Part shown: piece by piece, positions 539 through 63,017 of the stretch
Position numbering within the stretch: position 1 is the first letter of the stretch
Layout: every line of letters starts with the position of its first letter
Source: a virus
Lineage: Duplodnaviria; Heunggongvirae; Uroviricota; Caudoviricetes
IMG/VR virus record: IMGVR_UViG_3300045988_158233
Direction: 5' to 3' (one strand)
DNA: 64,000 nt
Notes under the pieces: generated by a model
Seen by the model: only the letters and a program-made list of their open reading frames with translations
Told to the model about the DNA's origin: nothing
The model's database searches: none
Made by a program: the position numbers and the translations under genes

Positions 539-1207
539 ATGACCAAGATCTTTGTGGTTGGCGGCACAAAGGGCGGGCCTGGCAAATCCACCGTTGCCCA
601 GCAAATTGCCGTTTGCCTGAAAGTCAAAAAGAAGAAGAAGGTTTATATCACCGATATAGATATTCAGCGCACGACAACGAGCTGGTGTGAAGACCGTCGA
701 CAGAACGAAGATCTTGAGCTGATTCCTTTTGCATACGTTCAAGATGACATCATTAAGCACCTAAAATCGCTTCAGGGTAGAGCTGAGTATGTAGTGGTAG
801 ATGCTGGTGGCTTTGACTCCGAAATTCAGCGACAAGCGATGCTGATGGCCGACGTTATCATTATCCCGCTGCGTCCTAAGCGTCGTGATTTGAAATCTTT
901 ACGTGACATCGATCCTATTATCGACAATGTTCGCAATGTAAACGACAAAGTGAAAGTCCGCGCGGTCATGAACCAATGCCCGGCTTTGCCATCACAAGTG
1001 TCTCGCATTCTAGCGGCTAAAGAGATTGTCGAGACGTTTGGCATCGAGTCTGCGCCAGTCAATCTATATAACCGCAACGTCTATGATGATGCGGAAGAGT
1101 CTGGTCGTTCTATCTTTGAAATGACCGGTAGCGAGCGCGACAAAAAGGCGGAAGCCGAGTTTGAAGAATTTGTAGATTATCTGTTGAGTCTGGAGGAAGA
1201 AGAATAA
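539..1207 (+). CDS. parA: ParA-family partition ATPase
   Basis: Deviant Walker A GGTKGGPGKST near N-terminus, ~220 aa, followed by overlapping small gene (ATAATG). Confidence 0.8.
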   Translation: MTKIFVVGGTKGGPGKSTVAQQIAVCLKVKKKKKVYITDIDIQRTTTSWCEDRRQNEDLELIPFAYVQDDIIKHLKSLQGRAEYVVVDAGGFDSEIQRQAMLMADVIIIPLRPKRRDLKSLRDIDPIIDNVRNVNDKVKVRAVMNQCPALPSQVSRILAAKEIVETFGIESAPVNLYNRNVYDDAEESGRSIFEMTGSERDKKAEAEFEEFVDYLLSLEEEE

Positions 1208-2965: not shown

Positions 2966-3715
2966 GTGAGCCACATGAGCCAAATCTTTTTCGATACCAT
3001 CGACAACGACCAGTACGACTTCATGACAGAGTGGAATACCGCTGTTATGGACAAGTGGGTCGCTGAAAACATTGGTTTGTCGCGCTGTAAAGACGAGGCT
3101 GAACTCTTCGAGACGAAGTGGTTTGATTACCGCGACATGCATCCTCTGATGGCCACCTGTCTATTTACGGAGGCATACAAACGTCAGTACTCAAATATCA
3201 TGCTGACGCACGGTCGCGAACACTTTGAAACAGCTCCGTTCACCACCGGGTTAAAACGCCTGCCTTATCAGGAGTTGTCGACTGCCAATAAAACGTCGCT
3301 ATGGAAAGCACGCCAGTTTGCTGACCGCTATTGCTGCTCATACGACTACTTTATCTCCACCGTTCTTTCCGCAGCTGCACGACGACTGTGGGACAAGCTG
3401 CCGCGTCCGCAGCATTTGTGGCAGCCAGAACTGATTGAGATATTTGAAGATAAATTAGCCAGACGCGCAACAACCCGTCTGGATGACTCTCTGGTTAGCT
3501 TTAAGCATATGGGAGACATGCAGTTCAACCCGATTCAGGAAAGCTATTTTGAGTGGATTCTGGAGCGTTTACGCGCCATCCCCCGCAGCAAGCGCATACG
3601 CGCAATTTTCTCCGCTATCTGGCTAATGGAAATCGTTCCAGAGCGCCTTATTTCCGCCCACTTTCCAGAAGAACTGGAAGAAGCACGGCGGTTTATTGAT
3701 CCCCTATCTAATTAA
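2966..3715 (+). CDS. hypothetical protein
   Basis: 249-aa ORF (GTG at 2966 or ATG at 2975). Confidence 0.5.
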   Translation: MSHMSQIFFDTIDNDQYDFMTEWNTAVMDKWVAENIGLSRCKDEAELFETKWFDYRDMHPLMATCLFTEAYKRQYSNIMLTHGREHFETAPFTTGLKRLPYQELSTANKTSLWKARQFADRYCCSYDYFISTVLSAAARRLWDKLPRPQHLWQPELIEIFEDKLARRATTRLDDSLVSFKHMGDMQFNPIQESYFEWILERLRAIPRSKRIRAIFSAIWLMEIVPERLISAHFPEELEEARRFIDPLSN

Positions 3716-31706: not shown

Positions 31707-32042
31707 ATGAAGGCCATCCCATTCGCGCTGTTGTTCCTTTCTTCGATCGTTGTGGCCGACACCACTGTTTATCAGTGTGAAATGTCTGTAGCCGACGTTA
31801 AGAATGGCGCTCTTACCGACGTCATAAAAGCACCATATGGCGCGATGGTCGTAGACAGCGGCGACCAGTTCTATGTTGTGCGAGACGATCGAGTATTGTC
31901 ATCCCCATATCTCACAAACCGTAATGGCAAATTAACCGGCGTCGGAGAAGACCACTTCGTATACAACAAATACAAGGGCTTCTATGGCGTTCACGCTTCT
32001 CAGCAAAGCTACCTTTTCGATGACTGCAAGGAGGTTGGATAA
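31707..32042 (+). CDS. small secreted protein
   Basis: N-terminal signal peptide MKAIPFALLFLSSIVVA. Confidence 0.45.
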   Translation: MKAIPFALLFLSSIVVADTTVYQCEMSVADVKNGALTDVIKAPYGAMVVDSGDQFYVVRDDRVLSSPYLTNRNGKLTGVGEDHFVYNKYKGFYGVHASQQSYLFDDCKEVG

Positions 32043-32254
32043 TGGCATTAACACTGGCAGGTCTGGAAATCGAGAAAACAAGCGGATACTGGCGTGCTAA
32101 GGGTTTCAAGCAGCCTGGCATTCTTGAGCGTCTGGAACGTGAAGATGGGTATATCGTCCACCAGCGGCGTGAATGGCGTATGTACGATCCAGAAACAGGA
32201 AAACTGACTACAAAAGCCGGAACACTTTGGGGTCTGTTGAAGAAAATACACTAA
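32042..32254 (+). CDS. hypothetical small protein
   Basis: 70-aa ORF overlapping previous stop. Confidence 0.35.
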   Translation: MALTLAGLEIEKTSGYWRAKGFKQPGILERLEREDGYIVHQRREWRMYDPETGKLTTKAGTLWGLLKKIH

Positions 32255-32302
32255 ATGCAAACTGACTGCGGCACGTTCCGCAGTCATATTTCATAGTCGT
32301 CA

Positions 32303-32834
32303 CCGCTGACAGCATACACAATCAACTGCCGCTGATAGCATATCGAGAGTCTATCTCACCGCTCACAGCATACTTTACTCGATTTTTTACCGCTGACAGC
32401 ATACTTAAGACATTGCATGAATAATGTGTACCGGTATGGGTATAACCAGAACAAAATTACCGCTGGCAGCATACGAAGGTCTGATATATGCCATTAATTA
32501 CCGCTGATAGCATATCCAAACAAAAATTCCTCAATAAAACACCGCTGACAGCATACGTTCTATCAGGGAGCAGCAGGCAATAAATACCTTTCACTACAAG
32601 TAATCAGCGCAATGGGAATAGAATGTTAGTGAGCGCAAACCTATATGGAATGCACTCTTCGAGGTTAGTAACCACTGGGGAGGTATAAAAGAGCATTGAG
32701 TGGTGATAGATGATTTACCGCTCACAGCATACGTTTATCTCACTATACCGCTGGTAGCATATCTTTAACCGTTCACAGCATACTTTTCAGAAAAATAGCC
32801 GCTGATAGCATACATTTCACCGCTGACAGCATAT
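32303..32834. repeat. iteron array downstream of repA (incA-like copy-control repeats)
   Basis: About 11 copies of CCGCTGACAGCATAC and variants (ccgctgatagcatat, ccgctcacagcatac, ccgctggcagcatac, ccgttcacagcatac) with irregular spacing. Confidence 0.8.
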
Positions 32835-33928
32835 CAAAGCAGTTTGAGACTATTGGAAAGGATCTCAATCATCTTGATATTTTCAGGCGTCAAATTCTGC
32901 GAAAGTTCAGTTATCTTGTTGATAATGTTCTGTTTAGCATCAATTTCCCCGGCTTTCTCATCTGGTTTTTTGGGTTCGATGTCTTCAGGTTTTGGCGGTG
33001 CGACTTTAAGTTTTGGATTGCGGCTGTGAATCTGGATATAGATCGACCGCCCTCGCTTAATCTCGCTGTATTCGAGATAGCCCAAATCTTGGAGAGCTTT
33101 TAAGCCGTTACGTATAGTCTGATTCTGCGAGCTTACATTCCTGCTACTCAAATTGAGTCGCGCACGCAATCGAGCAAGCGATACCGGCGCAGGCTTGGTT
33201 GGAAGACTTTCGATGAAGGTGTACAGAGCCTGTGCTGTTTCTTTGCGTGGTAGCTTATTGATAACCTTTAACTGCAAAAGAACCTTATGGTCAAAGCGAT
33301 ATAGTTCGGCCAGCTTCGGTTCTGCATAGAACACCACCGTATCTTTCTGCTCGTTGTAGTCCACGCTATTGATGAGGTGCACCATCAGAAGCGAGATCTT
33401 GTTAGAGCCGTCGACGTTCTTTTCTTCATACGTTCTCTGGAAAGACAGAGTTGTACGCATGATCTTCAAAAGACTGTTTGTAAGCCGGTCGCGGAGTGTT
33501 TTGCGGATCTGTGACGATGGATAGCCACAAAACTTCGCAAATTTCGTGATGCTTAACTCGACACGACCGTTAGGTTCGCCGTATTCTGCCAGCGAACGCA
33601 CAACGCCCACCCACGTTTTGAAATCATGATCCATGTCGAGACGAGGACCGGTTATCTTGATATCGGAATAGCCTTCAGAACGGGCTACTTCGAGCTGAAC
33701 AAGCTCCTTTGAAGCATCGATCTCATTTGGCTTGTTACGCTTGCTGTATTTTGTCCCCTTGAGCGTGGGCACGAACAATCCCAGCCGCATCAACGCAATT
33801 GGTTGGACTGTATTGTTGCTATTAGGGACAAGTTCCCCTGTGTACAATTCAAGGGAACCTTCTTCAAAGTTGTCGAGATTATCTTCTACTTCTTTGTTAT
33901 TTTTACCTTTTTTATTTTTTGTGGACAT
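32834..33928 (-). CDS. repA: iteron-binding replication initiator (RepA-like)
   Basis: Gene flanked on both sides by the same 15-bp iterons; start chosen at internal ATG (MSTKNKKGK) just downstream of the upstream iterons; basic N-terminus. Confidence 0.65.
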   Translation of the reverse strand: MSTKNKKGKNNKEVEDNLDNFEEGSLELYTGELVPNSNNTVQPIALMRLGLFVPTLKGTKYSKRNKPNEIDASKELVQLEVARSEGYSDIKITGPRLDMDHDFKTWVGVVRSLAEYGEPNGRVELSITKFAKFCGYPSSQIRKTLRDRLTNSLLKIMRTTLSFQRTYEEKNVDGSNKISLLMVHLINSVDYNEQKDTVVFYAEPKLAELYRFDHKVLLQLKVINKLPRKETAQALYTFIESLPTKPAPVSLARLRARLNLSSRNVSSQNQTIRNGLKALQDLGYLEYSEIKRGRSIYIQIHSRNPKLKVAPPKPEDIEPKKPDEKAGEIDAKQNIINKITELSQNLTPENIKMIEILSNSLKLL

Positions 33929-33949
33929 GTGGACACCTTTGTCATTCAA

Positions 33950-34050
33950 CCGCTGACAGCATACTTGATTTGCCGCTGACAGAATACCAAAAACAGTTGG
34001 CAGCATACGGTGAACCGCTGACAGACTATCAATTACCGCTGACAGCATAC
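33950..34050. repeat. iteron array upstream of repA (origin/incC-like)
   Basis: About 5 copies of CCGCTGACAGCATAC-type repeats between 33950 and 34050. Confidence 0.75.
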
Positions 34051-34087
34051 ATGAACATGGCTTCAGACCAGTCGTGGCGCGGCTTAC

Positions 34088-34165
34088 AGCGATCGGGGAT
34101 CTTATTTGATCTATACAAGGATCTATCTATGGATCTCTTTATTGGGATCTATCCTGTGGATATGT
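34088..34165. promoter_or_regulatory. GATC-rich origin segment with DnaA-box-like site
   Basis: Six GATC within 34091..34149 at 7-12 bp spacing, then TGTGGATAT (8/9 match to DnaA box TGTGGATAA). Confidence 0.55.
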
Positions 34166-34249
34166 GAATAATTAAAACAGGCATTTACTACCTTCGGCGC
34201 ACCTGGTGGGTTATCGTTGCCTCGGCTAACAATCACAGAAAAATGACAT

Positions 34250-34894
34250 ATGGATCTAAAACGCACGCGCTGGGTTCGTCGTCTTGAAGACGGCTCCTAC
34301 ACTATCGAATCAAATTCCAACCTGAATAAGCAGAAGTTGCTTTGTGACATCTGCGGTATAGCGGCGAAGTGCCCGATCTACGAAACCAGAATTAAACTTG
34401 ATAAGGCTGGTGTGAATTTTCATTTAAACAGTTGCATCAGGTACGTTCCATTACTCGCATTTCGTAAACCGATCATCGGATTGGATGCTCCCTACTTCAA
34501 CACACTCCGTTCAGGTGTGACGTGGCGAGATCGTTTATCACCAGACAAGCTGATTTGCCTCGTATCCGCAGACACAGGGAAAATCATCCGTTTTGGGAAA
34601 GTAGACAAGGTTTACTCAGGCCCAGTAGACGAAATGTTGCGGAAACACAGCCGGTTTAATCATCTCTGTATGGGTGGTGAGAAAATCGAGAAGGTAGAAG
34701 AAGTGATCCGCAAATCCTACGGACACTTTCTGACCAAAGATAGCCTGCTCACCGCAATCTACATCAGACATGTAAAACGTGAGTTCGACCTCGAATACCA
34801 CAGCGAAGAAGAGCTTAACCTTGTTGACCCACGTCCAAAAGCTGGCGTCATAAGCATAAACGCAGCGCGTAAAAAGCCCACTGACGCGCTGTAA
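34250..34894 (+). CDS. hypothetical protein
   Basis: 214-aa ORF next to origin. Confidence 0.5.
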   Translation: MDLKRTRWVRRLEDGSYTIESNSNLNKQKLLCDICGIAAKCPIYETRIKLDKAGVNFHLNSCIRYVPLLAFRKPIIGLDAPYFNTLRSGVTWRDRLSPDKLICLVSADTGKIIRFGKVDKVYSGPVDEMLRKHSRFNHLCMGGEKIEKVEEVIRKSYGHFLTKDSLLTAIYIRHVKREFDLEYHSEEELNLVDPRPKAGVISINAARKKPTDAL

Positions 34895-39765: not shown

Positions 39766-42125
39766 ATGATAAGCATCGTAAAACGTAACGGCCAAACAGA
39801 GCCGTTATCCGAAGAAAAATACAACCGCGTCGTAATGTATGGCGTAGAAGGCATTCGTGGTGTAAGCGCATCCGCTGTAGCAATGGGAGCTGCGGCCAGC
39901 ATTTTTGATGGGATTACCACCAGCCAGTTGCATGAGGCTTTGGTTAAATCTGCCGCTGATTTGATCTCACCAGAAGCACCAAATTACTCACAGGTGGCTG
40001 CCCGCCTGAACATTTTTAAAATCCGCAAAGATGCCTTCGGTCGTTACGACTATCCGAACTTCTACCAACACATTGTCAAGAACGTTAACAAGGGCGTTTA
40101 TGACAAGGATTTGCTGACACATTATTCGTTTGAAGAGATCGAAGAACTCGGCAATTACATTAAGCCGAAACGTGACGATCTTTTTGGCTATGCAGCTACG
40201 GTGCAGTTGCAAAGCAAATACCTCGTTCAAAACCGTGTTACTGGTGAGATTCATGAGGGGCCGCAACATATCTATATGCTGGTAGGCATGTGTCTGTTCC
40301 AGAATTGGGAAGACGACTGCGCTGGCAAAACACGTATGGAGATGGTCAAAGGTTTCTATGACGTTACAAGTACGTTCAAACTGTCTCTGCCCACACCAAT
40401 CATGGCCGGCGTCCGTACTCCAACCCGTCAGTTCTCCAGTTGTGTGCTGATTGAGTCTGGCGATAGTCTGAAAGGGATTAGTGCAGCTTCAGCCGCAATT
40501 ATCGACTACGTTTCACGTCGTGCTGGAATTGGTATTGGTTTTGGCCGTATCCGTGCGCTGGGCAGCGAGATCCGCAATGGTGAAGCCACCCATACTGGAG
40601 TTATTCCATTCCTGAAGCATTTCCAGACGGCTGTTAAATCTTGTTCGCAAGGTGGTGTTCGTGGTGGCGCAGCAACAGCGTTTTACCCGATCTGGCATCT
40701 TGAAGTTGAAAGTCTGCTGGTGGTGAAAAATAACCGTGGTATTGATGAAAACCGCGTTCGCCATCTTGATTACGGCGTCATGAGTAACCGTCTAATGTAC
40801 CGTCGACTCGTCAGAAGCGAGAACATCACTCTGTTCAGCCCGCATGATGTGCCTGATATGTACGAAGCCTTCTTCACAGACCAGGAGCTGTTTGAAAAGC
40901 TGTACCATAAATACGAAGCCGATGATTCAATTCGCAAGAAGTCAGTACCTGCCATTGAGCTGTTCTCATCTCTGATGCAGGAACGAGCGTCCACGGGCCG
41001 AATTTATATTGCGAACGTCGATCATATTAATGAGCATGGCGCTTTCATTCCTGCTCTTGCACCTGTTCGCCAGTCAAACCTGTGTATGGAGATCACCCTA
41101 CCCACCCGTCCACTGGCATTTACCGACGACCCGAACGGTGAGATCGCGCTATGCACTTTATCCGCTTTTAACCTCGGAGCCATCCGTTCACTGGAGTCTC
41201 TTAAAGAGGTGGCGTTCTATGCCGTTGCTGCACTGGATTCGTTACTGGATTATCAAGACTATCCGATGGAGGCAGGCCGAGTTGCCCGCCACTCAAAGTT
41301 GCTTATCCGATGGAGGCAGCCGAAGTGCCTGCCAAAGCTCGTCGTAGCTTGGGAATTGGTGTAACCAACTTTGCTTATTACCTGGCAAAGAATGGCGTTC
41401 GTTATTCTGATACCGCTGGCAATAAACTGGTGCATGAAACGTTCGAAGCTATCCAGTATTACCTTCTTGATGCCAGCTGCCGACTTGCTGAAGCAAAAGG
41501 TGAGTGTGACTGGTTTGAGCAGACCAAATACGCAATTGGTCAGTTGCCGATCGACCATTACCGTTCTTCATTAGACGAAAGTGGCGAAACCAACTTTGAG
41601 TTAAAGATGCCGTGGGAAGAACTGCGTGAACGTATTGCAAAATACGGCCTTCGCAACTCCACTCTGACGGCACAAATGCCATGCGAGACTTCCAGCCAGA
41701 TCACTAATTCCACCAACGGCATCGAACCGCCTCGTGGCCCGGTGTCAGTGAAATCTTCTAAGGACGGCATCGTCAAGATGGTCGTGCCTGAGTTTGAAAA
41801 ACTGAAGGAACAGTATGAATACCTGTGGGATATGCCGGACAACCGCGGCTATCTGACAAAGGTGGCGATCATCCAGAAGTTCTTTGACCAGGCTATTTCG
41901 GCCAATACCAACTATGACCCTTCTCGCTTTGAAGGCGATAAAGTCCCAATGATGACGCTACTGTCAGATTTGCTTCTCGCCTACAAGATGGGAGTTAAAA
42001 CGCTTTACTACCACAACACCAGAGATGGTGCAGGAAAGCGTGATGACGACGAACCGCAGAATCCACTGGCGCAAGCTGTAGCCGTCGAGCCAGAAGATGA
42101 GTGCGACGGAGCCTGCAAAATCTGA
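39766..42125 (+). pseudogene. nrdA: class Ia ribonucleotide reductase alpha subunit, reading frame interrupted near 41276..41319
   Basis: Two ORFs (39766..41364 and 41310..42125) together align to full-length NrdA; 44-nt segment flanked by 16-bp direct repeats causes the frame change. Confidence 0.8.
41276..41319 (+). repeat. 44-nt insert within nrdA bounded by 16-bp direct repeat
   Basis: tatccgatggaggcag at 41260..41275 and again at 41304..41319; intervening unique 28 nt gccgagttgcccgccactcaaagttgct. Confidence 0.8.
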
Positions 42126-49298: not shown

Positions 49299-49318
49299 TA
49301 GGTAATCACTTACCTATT
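49299..49318. promoter_or_regulatory. motif B perfect palindrome ATAGGTAA-N4-TTACCTAT
   Basis: ataggtaatcacttacctat, 10-30 bp upstream of methyltransferase ATG. Confidence 0.45.
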
Positions 49319-49922
49319 GAGAAAGAAGATGATTGCAGCCGAAAAAATCAAAAAGCGAAAGCGCGACAACTCTCTTCGTGACCTCTGGAGAACACCTGAC
49401 TGGCTGTTTAATGCCATTCAACGTTATCTGGGAGTGACATTTGATGTTGACGTTGCCTGCAATAAGGACAATGCAAAGCTGCCTATTTTCATAGGCGTTG
49501 AGCGCGATGCTTTGAAATCTGAATGGGGGCAGCCAGGTACAATTGCCTTCCTCAATCCACCCTACTCCAAAATCTCCCCCTGGATTGATGCGGCTATACG
49601 TGAGCAGGCTCGCGGAGTTACAACAGTGATGCTAATTCCTCAATCCCTCGATACAAAGTGGTATGAGCGTGCAACAGAGTGTGCGAATGAGACGATTATT
49701 CTGTCTGGTGGCCGCGTAGCGTTTGTCGAGCCTGACGTCAATCTGGGTCAGGTAGAAGTAAACATCAACCCCGGTGGCAGTATGCTCGTTGTTTTTCGCG
49801 GATTCTGTCAGGACGCTGGGCACTCTATAAGCAAGATCCCTTTGGACGTCATGAAAAGTCTGGGAGGGTATGATCCTGCGAATGTGATCAGGAAAAAAAG
49901 ACCATCAAAGAAGGCTGCTTAG
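49317..49922 (+). CDS. phage-type DNA N6-adenine methyltransferase (Dam-like)
   Basis: FLNPPYS catalytic motif, ~200 aa; probable start ATG 49329. Confidence 0.7.
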   Translation: MRKKMIAAEKIKKRKRDNSLRDLWRTPDWLFNAIQRYLGVTFDVDVACNKDNAKLPIFIGVERDALKSEWGQPGTIAFLNPPYSKISPWIDAAIREQARGVTTVMLIPQSLDTKWYERATECANETIILSGGRVAFVEPDVNLGQVEVNINPGGSMLVVFRGFCQDAGHSISKIPLDVMKSLGGYDPANVIRKKRPSKKAA

Positions 49923-61916: not shown

Positions 61917-63017
61917 TCACACTGCGCGGAATGCGATTTCGCCAGGTATTACTTCACCTTGCCAATACATTTGGGCAGCAACGCGATCTGCGAGGTCACG
62001 ATAAATAGCCGTAAATTCGCTATCTGGACGACTAATAACGGTTGGTGTTCCGTTATCCAGATCTTCACGAAGAGAGATATGAAGTGGCATTTGGCCTAAC
62101 AACTGCGTGTTGTATTTCTCGGCCAGTTTCTGTGCGCCACCGGTGCCAAAAATTGGCTCGTGATGACCGCAGTTACTGCAAATATGCACACTCATGTTTT
62201 CGACGATACCTAGTACCGGCACTTCGACTTTTTCGAACATCACAATGCCTTTCTTCGCATCGATCAGCGCGATGTCTTGCGGCGTAGTTACCACAACCGC
62301 ACCAGTTACAGGAATGTTCTGCGCCAGCGTCAATTGAATATCACCAGTGCCCGGCGGCATATCGAGAACGAGATAGTCCAGATCAGGCCACAGTGTTTCC
62401 TGCAACATCTGCATCAGCGCCTTGCTGGCCATCGGTCCACGCCACACCATTGCATTGTCGTCGGTGACCAGATAACCAATAGAGTTGGTTGCCAGGCCAT
62501 GAGACATGATAGGTGCCATGTGAGTACCGTCCGGTGAGGTTGGACGTTGGTTTTCCGCGCCCAGCATGGTTGGAATTGATGGACCATAGATATCGGCATC
62601 CAAAATACCAACTTTCGCACCTTCAGCAGCCAAAGCCAGTGCCAAGTTTACTGCTGTGGACGATTTGCCTACACCGCCCTTGCCTGAGCTTACGGCGATA
62701 ATATTCTTAACACCATTAATGCCTGGTTGGTTTTTGACGCGCTTAAGCGTGGCAATGTTGTACGACAGCTTCCAGTCAATAGCCTTTGCGCCAGTGATAC
62801 GGAGCAGATCACCACTACATTGCTCTTTCAGGTCTTCAAAAGGCTTATTCCACACGAAAGGCATGATTAGTTCGACATGCAGTGTGTCATCCATCAACGC
62901 AACATGGTGTAACGCTTTAAGCGTAGTCAGGTTGTGTTTCAGGGTTGGGTGCTGAAAATTAGCCAGCGTACCGGCTACCATTGCTCTCAGGGCATCCGGC
63001 GATTTGGACTCGCTCAT
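61917..63017 (-). CDS. apbC: iron-sulfur cluster carrier ATPase Mrp/ApbC
   Basis: Full-length match by eye to E. coli Mrp: deviant Walker A SGKGGVGKSST, CSNCGHH motif. Confidence 0.9.
   Translation of the reverse strand: MSESKSPDALRAMVAGTLANFQHPTLKHNLTTLKALHHVALMDDTLHVELIMPFVWNKPFEDLKEQCSGDLLRITGAKAIDWKLSYNIATLKRVKNQPGINGVKNIIAVSSGKGGVGKSSTAVNLALALAAEGAKVGILDADIYGPSIPTMLGAENQRPTSPDGTHMAPIMSHGLATNSIGYLVTDDNAMVWRGPMASKALMQMLQETLWPDLDYLVLDMPPGTGDIQLTLAQNIPVTGAVVVTTPQDIALIDAKKGIVMFEKVEVPVLGIVENMSVHICSNCGHHEPIFGTGGAQKLAEKYNTQLLGQMPLHISLREDLDNGTPTVISRPDSEFTAIYRDLADRVAAQMYWQGEVIPGEIAFRAV

Follow-up and report, generated by a model that had tools for sequence, protein, structure and literature searches.

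A predicted low-copy plasmid replicon of the P1/RepFIB family in an SSU5-type phage-plasmid of Escherichia coli

The plasmid replicon of phage P1 has an origin, oriR, in which tandem DnaA boxes, five heptamers with a (C/T)GATCG site, and a spacer containing gccgcgccacg are followed by five iterons at 21-bp phasing. The P1 record annotates the DnaA site, the Dam sites, the incC iterons, repA, and the incA iterons, and was used here as the reference. This oriR/RepA system serves the plasmid state only; for lytic growth P1 uses a separate replicon, repL/oriL. Phage-plasmids of the SSU5 supercommunity are typed as IncFIB (PMC7969092); blaCTX-M-15 occurs in some of them, such as pECOH89 (PMC3999498), and a related element, Cyrano, is present at about 5.5 copies per cell (PMC9928086). 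A paper on IncpKPHS1 plasmids reported four iterons only and no Rep domain (PMC6735626). Our literature search found no experiment on the replicon subtype described below.

Within the window, by which we mean the whole 64-kb stretch of DNA that was analysed, positions 32303-34171 very probably constitute the replicon that maintains an SSU5/pHCM2-type E. coli phage-plasmid as a low-copy plasmid prophage, and belong to the P1 oriR/RepFIB family of iteron replicons. The anatomy of the locus, its statistical significance, its protein and origin homology, and the selective conservation of its iterons are direct observations, and homology predicts that it functions as a replicon. The type is already known in kind, and the locus is an ordinary, clear relative of the phage P1 and RepFIB plasmid origins. 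From the outer end toward rep, it consists of DnaA boxes, five AGATCC heptamers, CGATCG, a G+C-rich spacer, and five iterons at 21-bp phasing. The initial annotation had likened it to the P1 organization (incA iterons, repA, and incC/oriR with GATC heptamers and DnaA boxes), and the order of parts is indeed that of the annotated P1 record. Its label, a P1-type iteron replicon, is likewise upheld by Rep homology, origin-core homology, part order, and iteron phasing, each of which agrees with P1. 'P1/RepFIB family' is the more exact label, because Rep is slightly closer to the RepFIB RepA of F (52% identity) than to P1 RepA (46%).

The rep gene (32834-33931, minus strand) runs from an ATG at 33931 to a stop codon at 32834 and encodes the 365 residues originally claimed for it. 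The product, RepA, is a predicted iteron-binding initiator of the Rep_3 class with a tandem winged-helix fold. A profile search of the protein against Rep families revealed similarity to initiators, with a match to Pfam Rep3_N (WH1) at E 4e-9 (37.4 bits; cut-off 22.4). The homologues included P1 RepA (BLASTP E 4e-86; tblastn E 2e-64), the RepFIB RepA of F (BLASTP E 2e-110), SSU5 RepA (48% identity), and a Klebsiella phage-plasmid Rep (85%), and tblastn with Rep matched P1, P7, and RepFIB-type P1-like phages. The homology to P1 RepA covers a core of residues 33-310. Rep is 79 residues longer than P1 RepA, from which it differs by an N-terminus of about 45 residues that is lysine-rich and predicted to be disordered, and by a C-terminal tail of two helices that is common to RepFIB-type proteins and lacking in P1 RepA. 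RepFIB of F/P307 (IncFIB) is the closest classical initiator, its identity with Rep extending into part of this tail.

An AlphaFold model of Rep had a mean pLDDT of 70.8, with values of about 80-90 in the core. Among PDB structures, Foldseek matched this model to RctB domains 2-3 (E 1e-6), to RepE (E 5e-5), and to the WH1 domains of MSBI1.176 and pPS10 RepA, at modest TM-scores of 0.37-0.5. Sequence searches of PDB chains, with Rep alone or with a 30-sequence profile, gave no meaningful match, so that only fold comparison tied Rep to RepE and RctB. Together, profile and model place Rep as a predicted Rep_3 (PF01051) tandem winged-helix iteron initiator, in the class of RepE, pi, and pPS10 RepA. 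A search of NCBIfam gave no match for Rep or for the neighbouring 214-aa protein. A 404-aa ORF was considered as the real Rep and rejected; RefSeq places the Rep start codon 39 codons too early.

Over 121 bp, the origin core shares 75% identity with that of P1 oriR and 72-78% with three further P1/RepFIB-type origins, all of which have their parts in the same order. Next to the iterons lies a G+C-rich spacer (34050-34090, 59% GC) that contains gccgcgccacg and has its homologue in the G+C-rich part of the P1 oriR core. It is followed by an A+T-rich cluster of Dam sites (34091-34151, minus strand, 34% GC), made up of CGATCG and five AGATCC-type heptamers, one of them AGATCA. Six GATC sites had been counted here in 60 bp; we find six in 59 bp, starting at 34091, 34098, 34108, 34120, 34132, and 34146 (spacing 7/10/12/12/14 bp). 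This is the densest such cluster in the window, which elsewhere has at most three sites per 60 bp, and a Poisson model predicts about 0.03 comparable clusters over the whole stretch. Aligned to P1 oriR, the heptamers coincide column for column with the Dam sites annotated there; all five keep GATC, whereas one P1 heptamer reads AGGTCC. The cluster is presumed to be the region of DNA unwinding and SeqA sequestration.

Two DnaA boxes, in tandem and sharing one base, close the origin on its outer side (34155-34171, minus strand). The first, TGTGGATAT at 34155-34163, corresponds on the minus strand to ATATCCACA with one mismatch, and the second, TTATTCACA at 34163-34171, abuts it and is a perfect match to TTATNCACA. 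A single DnaA-box-like site had been proposed; TGTGGATAT was correctly recognized, but the number was not, as TTATTCACA adjoins it. DnaA-like 9-mers are not enriched across the whole window (69 found, 64 expected), and the two boxes are meaningful because their position equals that of the annotated DnaA site of P1 oriR. P1 also has clear DnaA boxes between its iterons and repA, whereas here two GTCCACA motifs, both weak, surround the start codon. In F, the same TTATCCACA-type box, then GATCC repeats, lie upstream of repA, but the iteron sequence is unlike the present one and the distance from origin to repA is much longer (some 250 nt separate the GATC region from the start codon).

Read in the direction of rep, the iteron consensus is GTATGCTGTCAGCGGT, as against ATGTGTGCTGGAGGG in P1. 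With up to two mismatches, CCGCTGACAGCATA has 16 matches in the 64-kb window, all on the plus strand and all within 32303-34049; a 17th copy, at 33994, is degenerate (three mismatches) and in register with its neighbours. When three mismatches were allowed there were 25 matches, compared with 4.7 +/- 2.2 in shuffled sequences, and none of 100 shuffles reached 25. Both the iterons and the GATC cluster are far beyond chance and restricted to the replicon locus.

The origin (incC-like) iterons are five direct copies at 33950-34049 (minus strand; starts 33950, 33973, 33994, 34015, and 34036, spacing 23/21/21/21 bp), in agreement with the five or so first noted upstream of rep, and they end 18 nt before the rep ATG. 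Their spacing of 21-21-21-23 bp, about two helical turns per step, compares with 21-21-21-22 bp in P1. The third is the degenerate one, and the copy in the Klebsiella lineage is degenerate in the same manner. Downstream of rep about 11 copies had been reported; the array is real, but it holds 12. The proximal control cluster (32718-32833, minus strand) has five, starting at 32718, 32748, 32769, 32799, and 32820 with spacings of 30/21/30/21 bp, the final copy abutting the rep stop codon. This first control iteron begins 1 nt past the stop codon, as it does in P1, and the first downstream iteron has the same position in P1, JK004, and pJN2-26. An iteron-free spacer of 162 bp (32556-32717), containing only short ORFs that overlap repeats, divides it from the distal control (incA-like) cluster of seven (32303-32555, minus strand; starts 32303, 32329, 32359, 32390, 32460, 32501, and 32542), which is oriented in the same way as the origin iterons. 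No Rfam family matched 32000-34400 at E up to 1, so the iteron spacers contain no antisense or regulatory RNA of a known kind.

The control array is larger than incA and differently arranged, with 12 iterons, all direct and split 5 + 7 by the 162-bp spacer, in place of the nine of P1, of which three are direct and six inverted. Because the array is unlike incA in number, orientation, and split, handcuffing geometry and the copy-number set-point may differ from those of P1. The number of control iterons is itself variable, being 12 here, nine in the 99%-identical phage PhiR41_1, from which the three outermost distal copies are absent, and eight (4 + 4) in the Klebsiella relatives. Across the SSU5 supercommunity (SSU5, pLF82/Cyrano, pHCM2, and Klebsiella pKPHS1-type elements such as pJN2-26) the architecture is alike, as is the neighbourhood, in which an ASCH-like gene is followed by rep and then by a small 'Cre-associated' gene. 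The Klebsiella type, with its 85%-identical Rep, has an identical iteron core and identical origin spacing, whereas SSU5/Cyrano, with RepA at 48%, has a different, CCACTGTAGTGAG-like iteron and 14 control copies in mixed orientation. Between the E. coli and Klebsiella types the iteron cores are 91% identical and the spacers 55% (Fisher p 1e-5), with rep genes 76% identical, which indicates that the iterons are under stronger constraint than the spacers.

We suggest that the replicon works as follows, each biochemical step being carried over by homology from P1. RepA monomers would bind the five 21-bp-phased origin iterons (33950-34049) and host DnaA the paired boxes at the opposite end (34155-34171), and the two proteins would jointly open the intervening A+T-rich stretch with its five AGATCC heptamers and CGATCG. 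These sites would need Dam methylation for the origin to fire, and SeqA would sequester them when hemimethylated; theta replication by host helicase and Pol III would then follow. The 12 downstream iterons (32303-32833) would act as an incA-like copy control, through RepA titration and 'handcuffing' with the origin iterons. As expected for this family, replication would be autonomous and would depend on RepA, DnaA, Dam methylation, and DnaK/DnaJ/GrpE, and the iteron arrays would exert incompatibility; indirect support comes from the natural plasmids in which no other replicon is typed. The rep promoter is presumed to lie within the origin iterons (33950-34049), and RepA bound there probably represses it. 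A sigma-70 scan of the minus strand at 33930-34060 gave no match at 9 or more of 12 positions, weak candidates only were seen by eye, and on inspection of the origin iterons no candidate was common to the E. coli type and the Klebsiella type. As no sigma-70 promoter of consensus grade was detected in the origin iterons or their vicinity, autorepression is postulated solely from analogy.

The setting of the locus supports a plasmid lifestyle for a phage-like gene set, as first claimed: the window matches, at 99-99.7% identity, both the genome of Escherichia phage PhiR41_1 and E. coli plasmids of about 100-114 kb that are circular and non-mobilizable. At the locus itself identity is 99.7% to p503440_100 and 99.0% to PhiR41_1, and the first 25 kb of the window show 96-98.5% identity to E. 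coli plasmids of 110-115 kb. The replicon region is present to at least 80% in 121 plasmid records, two of which were examined in detail; both are non-mobilizable and list rep_cluster_488 as their sole replicon. Reduced E. albertii derivatives of 62-64 kb also retain the replicon as the only one typed. A literature search on PhiR41_1 or rep_cluster_488 found no relevant paper. By these relationships the host element is assigned as an SSU5/pHCM2-type phage-plasmid (IncFIB(H89-PhagePlasmid)-like), a plasmid prophage as P1 is. In PlasmidFinder-based literature pECOH89 is typed 'IncFIB(H89-PhagePlasmid)', and the tie of the present rep to the pECOH89 reference extends to consistency with the published 48% identity to pLF82 RepA only. 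With this replicon module, SSU5-like phage-plasmids would be maintained in E. coli as plasmids of low copy number.

The element carries the DNA-metabolism genes typical of this group, namely DnaE, a DnaB-like helicase, ligase, CobT/CobS-like proteins, NrdAB, ThyA, RNase H, and Dam, together with exonucleases; several ORFs in the window are without family assignment. With DnaB-like helicase, DnaE, ligase, RNase H, exonucleases, and NrdAB all encoded, and with no separate lytic origin or initiator identified within the window, the module might be, or might also be, the vegetative origin of the phage, RepA recruiting the element's DnaB-like helicase and DnaE. We consider this very unlikely. The homologous P1 oriR/RepA serves the plasmid state, lytic growth proceeding from the separate replicon repL/oriL (PMC6906374), the 17 iterons with their 12-copy control array form a copy-limiting design, and the reduced E. 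albertii plasmids, with about 40 kb less DNA and with IS insertions, still rely on the replicon. An unlikely extension of the plasmid-replicon reading is that the origin might be served by more than the host replisome, RepA handing over to the element's DnaB-like helicase and DnaE, and that the enlarged, all-direct, two-cluster array of variable copy number could tune copy number and so couple plasmid maintenance with lytic or amplified replication.

That the locus is an inactive relic, with another, undetected replicon maintaining the element, seems to us scarcely credible. Function here is predicted by homology and some of the window's ORFs match no family, which leaves such a reading some room, but the Rep ORF is intact, lineages from E. 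coli, Salmonella, and Klebsiella conserve it, the iterons are more constrained than their spacers, and the replicon is the sole typed one in the 100-kb and 64-kb plasmids examined. Almost no probability attaches to the repeats being phage attachment sites, a partition centromere, or a CRISPR-like array instead of initiator-binding sites, even though the GenBank record of Klebsiella phage pJN2-26 names two of them attL and attR and the window has a ParA gene without an identified centromere: the two 'att' sites belong to a set of 13 copies of one 16-nt motif on either side of rep, par is 31 kb away, the units of 14-19 nt at irregular 21-41 bp spacings come with no cas genes, and the repeats adjoin a P1-homologous origin core and correspond in arrangement, phasing, and position to the RepA iterons that experiments have defined in P1, so that all three identities were rejected.

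Taking the locus as a P1/RepFIB-family plasmid replicon, the base-level map of initiator, 5 + 12 iterons, Dam-site heptamers, and DnaA boxes leaves the understanding of iteron replicons unchanged, but corrects annotation (the RefSeq Rep start and the attL/attR labels) and delimits a fragment suited to mini-replicon construction. It also makes predictions about incompatibility. As the iteron sequence is distinct from that of P1, the element is predicted to be compatible with P1, and as the iteron is identical in the Klebsiella relatives, it is predicted to be incompatible with them. Thus pECOH89-type (E. coli) and pKPHS1-type (Klebsiella) phage-plasmids should be mutually incompatible though typed as different groups, a prediction we hold to be more likely than the hand-over of RepA to the element's own helicase.

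The outer boundary of the replicon is a terminator-like bidirectional hairpin (32263-32286; 9-bp stem with six GC pairs), adjoined by a convergent 70-aa gene (32042-32254). These occupy the place directly downstream of the incA-like array where P1-type ParA (about 400 aa, with an N-terminal DNA-binding domain), ParB, and parS were sought and not found. In place of the adjacent parABS of P1, the window has a small ParA-type partition ATPase of 222 aa (539-1207, plus strand), 31 kb from the replicon and the only partition-type ParA; the gene was named parA at the outset and does encode a ParA/MinD-type P-loop ATPase. Small repeats around it were searched as a centromere, with nothing convincing. 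A translationally coupled 119-aa ORF follows parA (1207-1566) and, though without a family match, is possibly the centromere-binding partner of ParA. Further along, the Dam-family N6-adenine DNA methyltransferase of the element (49317-49922, plus strand; Pfam PF05869, E 2.4e-37) may methylate the GATC sites of the origin.

As judged by sequence comparison, the origin beside the initiator gene repA is homologous to P1 oriR, and the likeness extends beyond a shared layout. The origin core, from the DnaA boxes to the first iteron, spans 121 nt here and 118 nt in P1, with 75% identity; its identity is 72–78% with the cores of Cronobacter phage JK004, Klebsiella phage pJN2-26, and RCS47 (a RepFIB-type P1-like phage), and 60% with that of SSU5. 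In the orientation of rep, the window has ttattcacatatccacaggatagatcccaataaagagatccatagatagatccttgtatagatcaaataagatccccgatcgctgtaagccgcgccacgactggtctgaag where P1 has ttatccacattatccactggatagatccaataatcaggtccatacagatcccaattagatccatatagatccctgatcgttgcaggccgcgccacgtctggcttagaag. The P1 GenBank record annotates the same parts, namely a DnaA binding site, five Dam sites, incC iterons 10–14 with PrepA, repA, and incA iterons 1–9. Origin iterons are spaced at 21-21-21-23 bp here and at 21-21-21-22 bp in P1, and the first control iteron lies 1 nt past the rep stop codon in the window, P1, JK004, and pJN2-26 alike. The RepFIB origin of plasmid F resembles that of the window in that GATCC repeats follow a TTATCCACA-type box. 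Together, the core identity, the annotated parts, the spacing, and the likeness to F place the origin in the P1 oriR/RepFIB family, and the P1-type replicon proposed in the initial annotation is borne out by origin-core homology, order of parts, and Rep homology.

Beyond the iterons upstream of rep, a G+C-rich spacer (59% GC) precedes a stretch of 34% GC that holds six GATC sites (starts 34091–34146). The six sites, already recognized in the initial annotation, form the densest such cluster in the window (elsewhere at most three per 60 bp; Poisson expectation over the whole window about 0.03). The single DnaA-box-like site described there is also present (minus strand, 34155–34163, ATATCCACA), but a second, better box adjoins it in tandem (minus strand, 34163–34171, TTATTCACA). 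On the side opposite the origin, a terminator-like hairpin (32263–32286) bounds the locus. GATC is kept in all five heptamers here, whereas one P1 heptamer reads AGGTCC. The P1 DnaA boxes between incC and repA have no clear counterpart, only two GTCCACA motifs flanking the start codon, at whose place the Klebsiella type (pJN2-26, representing the pKPHS1-type phage-plasmids) has GTATCCACA.

The initiator itself is encoded on the minus strand (ATG 33931 to stop 32834, 365 aa). A Pfam search matched the Rep3_N (WH1) initiator domain at residues 119–240 (E 4e-9, 37.4 bits, cut-off 22.4). By BLASTP, Rep is 46% identical to P1 RepA over residues 33–310 (E 4e-86) and 52% identical to RepFIB RepA of plasmid F (E 2e-110); by tblastn, it is 48% identical to RepA of SSU5 and Cyrano (E 4e-78) and 85% identical to Rep of Klebsiella SSU5-like phage-plasmids (E about 0). 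It is also 50–59% identical to a large Enterobacterales family named 'RepB family / RepFIB RepA'. Sequence searches alone brought up no solved structure. An AlphaFold model built with 30 homologues as input (mean pLDDT 70.8; core residues 70–305 mostly 80–90) matched best, in the PDB, RctB domains 2–3 (E 1e-6), RepE of mini-F (E 5e-5), and two WH1 domains, from MSBI1.176 and from pPS10 RepA; TM-scores were modest (0.37–0.5), and the predicted fold is the tandem winged-helix type of iteron initiators. Disorder is predicted for the first ~45 residues and residues 308–329. Rep is extended at both ends relative to P1 RepA (286 aa), with a disordered, Lys-rich N-terminus and, at the C-terminus, a tail of two helices that RepFIB-type proteins also have. 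RefSeq relatives are called at 404 aa from ATG 34048, with an added stretch of CDS (33932–34048, minus strand) crossing all five origin iterons; we prefer the 365-aa start because of homologue lengths, the annotation of Escherichia phage PhiR41_1, and an AAAGG Shine-Dalgarno sequence 7 nt ahead of ATG 33931, all of which disfavour the longer form.

The iteron core, CCGCTGACAGCATA on the plus strand (GTATGCTGTCAGCGGT as a consensus in the rep direction), has 16 matches with at most two mismatches in the 64-kb window, each on the plus strand and only within 32303–34049. A seventeenth copy at 33994 is degenerate (three mismatches) and keeps the register of its neighbours. Allowing up to three mismatches, the window holds 25 matches, as against 4.7 ± 2.2 in 100 dinucleotide-preserving shuffles, none of which reached 25. 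Five copies lie upstream of rep (33950–34049), as the initial annotation had it; the downstream array is likewise real, with 12 copies rather than about 11. The observation and interpretation given in that annotation both stand, corrected for this count and for the second DnaA box. The control copies form a proximal cluster of five (32718–32833) and a distal cluster of seven (32303–32555), divided by 162 bp without iterons (32556–32717) that gave no Rfam match and no credible ORF; in the Klebsiella relative, the matching interval measures only ~70 bp. All 12 are oriented as the origin iterons are, whereas P1 has nine, three direct and six inverted. The iteron sequence is also unlike that of P1, and incompatibility with P1 (IncY) is therefore not expected.

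By analogy with the P1 paradigm, RepA monomers would fill the five phased origin iterons while DnaA binds the tandem boxes at the opposite end; the A+T-rich heptamer region between them would melt if fully methylated at its GATC sites and be sequestered by SeqA if hemimethylated, with theta replication carried out by host DnaB and Pol III. Repression of repA by its own product, bound at the origin iterons, is presumed; it is the weakest step of the scheme because no consensus-grade promoter was found in those iterons. The 12 downstream copies would play the part of incA and exert control by titration and handcuffing. Such a design would fit a low copy number; Cyrano, a related element with a different Rep subtype, was measured at ~5.5 copies per cell (PMC9928086). 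That the replicon also serves as a lytic origin is unlikely given its copy-limiting design and the precedent of P1, even though the element encodes a large part of a replisome. The rest of the window encodes a DnaB-like helicase, an ATP-dependent ligase, DnaE, a RecA-like protein, and a 5'-3' exonuclease, alongside SbcCD-like proteins, NrdAB, ThyA, RNase H, a Dam-family methyltransferase, PhoH, an integrase, and CobT/CobS-like proteins, a DNA-metabolism set typical of SSU5/pHCM2-type phage-plasmids.

Comparison of the window (E. coli type) with the Klebsiella type argues that the repeats are functional: the rep genes share 76% nucleotide identity, and at the origin the 16-nt iteron cores are 91% identical (73/80) as against 55% for the spacers between them (22/40; Fisher's exact test, p = 1e-5). 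The degenerate third iteron (GCCAAC variant) keeps its degenerate form in both. The pJN2-26 record (MZ779062) labels two 20-bp repeats flanking rep (1881–1900 and 3151–3170) attR and attL, but these are two of 13 RepA iteron copies, and the labels look like a prophage-finder artefact; the number, phasing, position, and homology of the repeats contradict their reading as att sites, as in that record, and equally as a centromere or a CRISPR-like array. Other lineages with the same architecture carry other iterons (ATGTGTGCTGGAGGG in P1 and JK004, TTGACTATACGCGA in RCS47, CCACTGTAGTGAG in SSU5), the pattern expected of initiator-site co-evolution and incompatibility-group diversification. The common iteron of the E. 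coli and Klebsiella lineages makes for a testable incompatibility prediction. Control arrays vary in number, with 4 + 4 copies in the Klebsiella type and nine in PhiR41_1, where an 87-bp deletion (relative to 32303–32389) removes the three outermost; among relatives 99% identical, such variation might alter copy number.

The locus is 99.7% identical to that of E. coli plasmid p503440_100 (circular, non-mobilizable, 100,473 bp), whose sole MOB-suite replicon it is (rep_cluster_488), and 99.0% identical to that of PhiR41_1 (107,998 bp, host MG1655). In the plasmid collection, 121 records, mostly from E. coli, Shigella, and E. albertii, carry at least 80% of it. In E. albertii plasmids of 62–64 kb, it is the only typed replicon (98.6% identity); NZ_CP034165 and about eight similar records are reduced derivatives, shorter than the phage-plasmid by ~40 kb, that bear IS insertions and carry hdeAB as cargo; in effect, they are natural deletions that still persist as plasmids. 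Conservation of the locus contradicts the view of the replicon as a relic, and so does the fact that the plasmids examined have no other typed replicon. The replicon is a member of a well-known family, and the SSU5/pHCM2-type group is already catalogued as phage-plasmids typed IncFIB (PMC7969092; PMC3999498; PMC13645330). One paper on Klebsiella IncpKPHS1 plasmids counted four iterons past repA and reported no Rep domain (PMC6735626). The searchable literature on this subtype offered coarse descriptions and no experimental dissection; added here, at the level of annotation, are a full map of the 5 + 12 iterons, the five heptamers and two DnaA boxes of the P1-homologous core, the corrected Rep start, and the incompatibility prediction for the E. 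coli and Klebsiella lineages.

While parABS of P1 adjoins its replicon, the window has no adjacent P1-type parABS, and its only partition-type ParA (222 aa, 539–1207) lies 31 kb away. An ORF of 119 aa, translationally coupled to it by an ATGA overlap at 1207, matched no family and may encode a centromere-binding partner; the 13-bp inverted repeat after it (1572–1609) may be a terminator or binding site. A search near this ParA found no centromere or centromere repeats. A second 'ParA-like' ORF (61917–63017, minus strand, 366 aa) falls in the Mrp/NUBPL iron-sulfur carrier family (PF10609, E 2e-102); by that assignment it is no partition ATPase, and it lends no support to plasmid partition. The Dam-family N6-adenine methyltransferase (49317–49922; PF05869, E 2.4e-37) might, speculatively, methylate the six origin GATC sites without host Dam; P1 likewise encodes a Dam-type enzyme. 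Divergent from the origin, a 214-aa gene (34250–34894) without Pfam or NCBIfam matches is kept beside rep in SSU5 (SSU5_070), Cyrano, and pJN2-26, and its Cyrano counterpart is annotated as an ASCH domain protein. Finally, nrdA, encoding the class I ribonucleotide reductase large subunit, is split into overlapping ORFs in different frames (39766–41364 and 41310–42125) that cover positions 1–275 and 274–523, respectively, of Pfam Ribonuc_red_lgC; a frameshift, pseudogene formation, or a sequencing error could account for the split.
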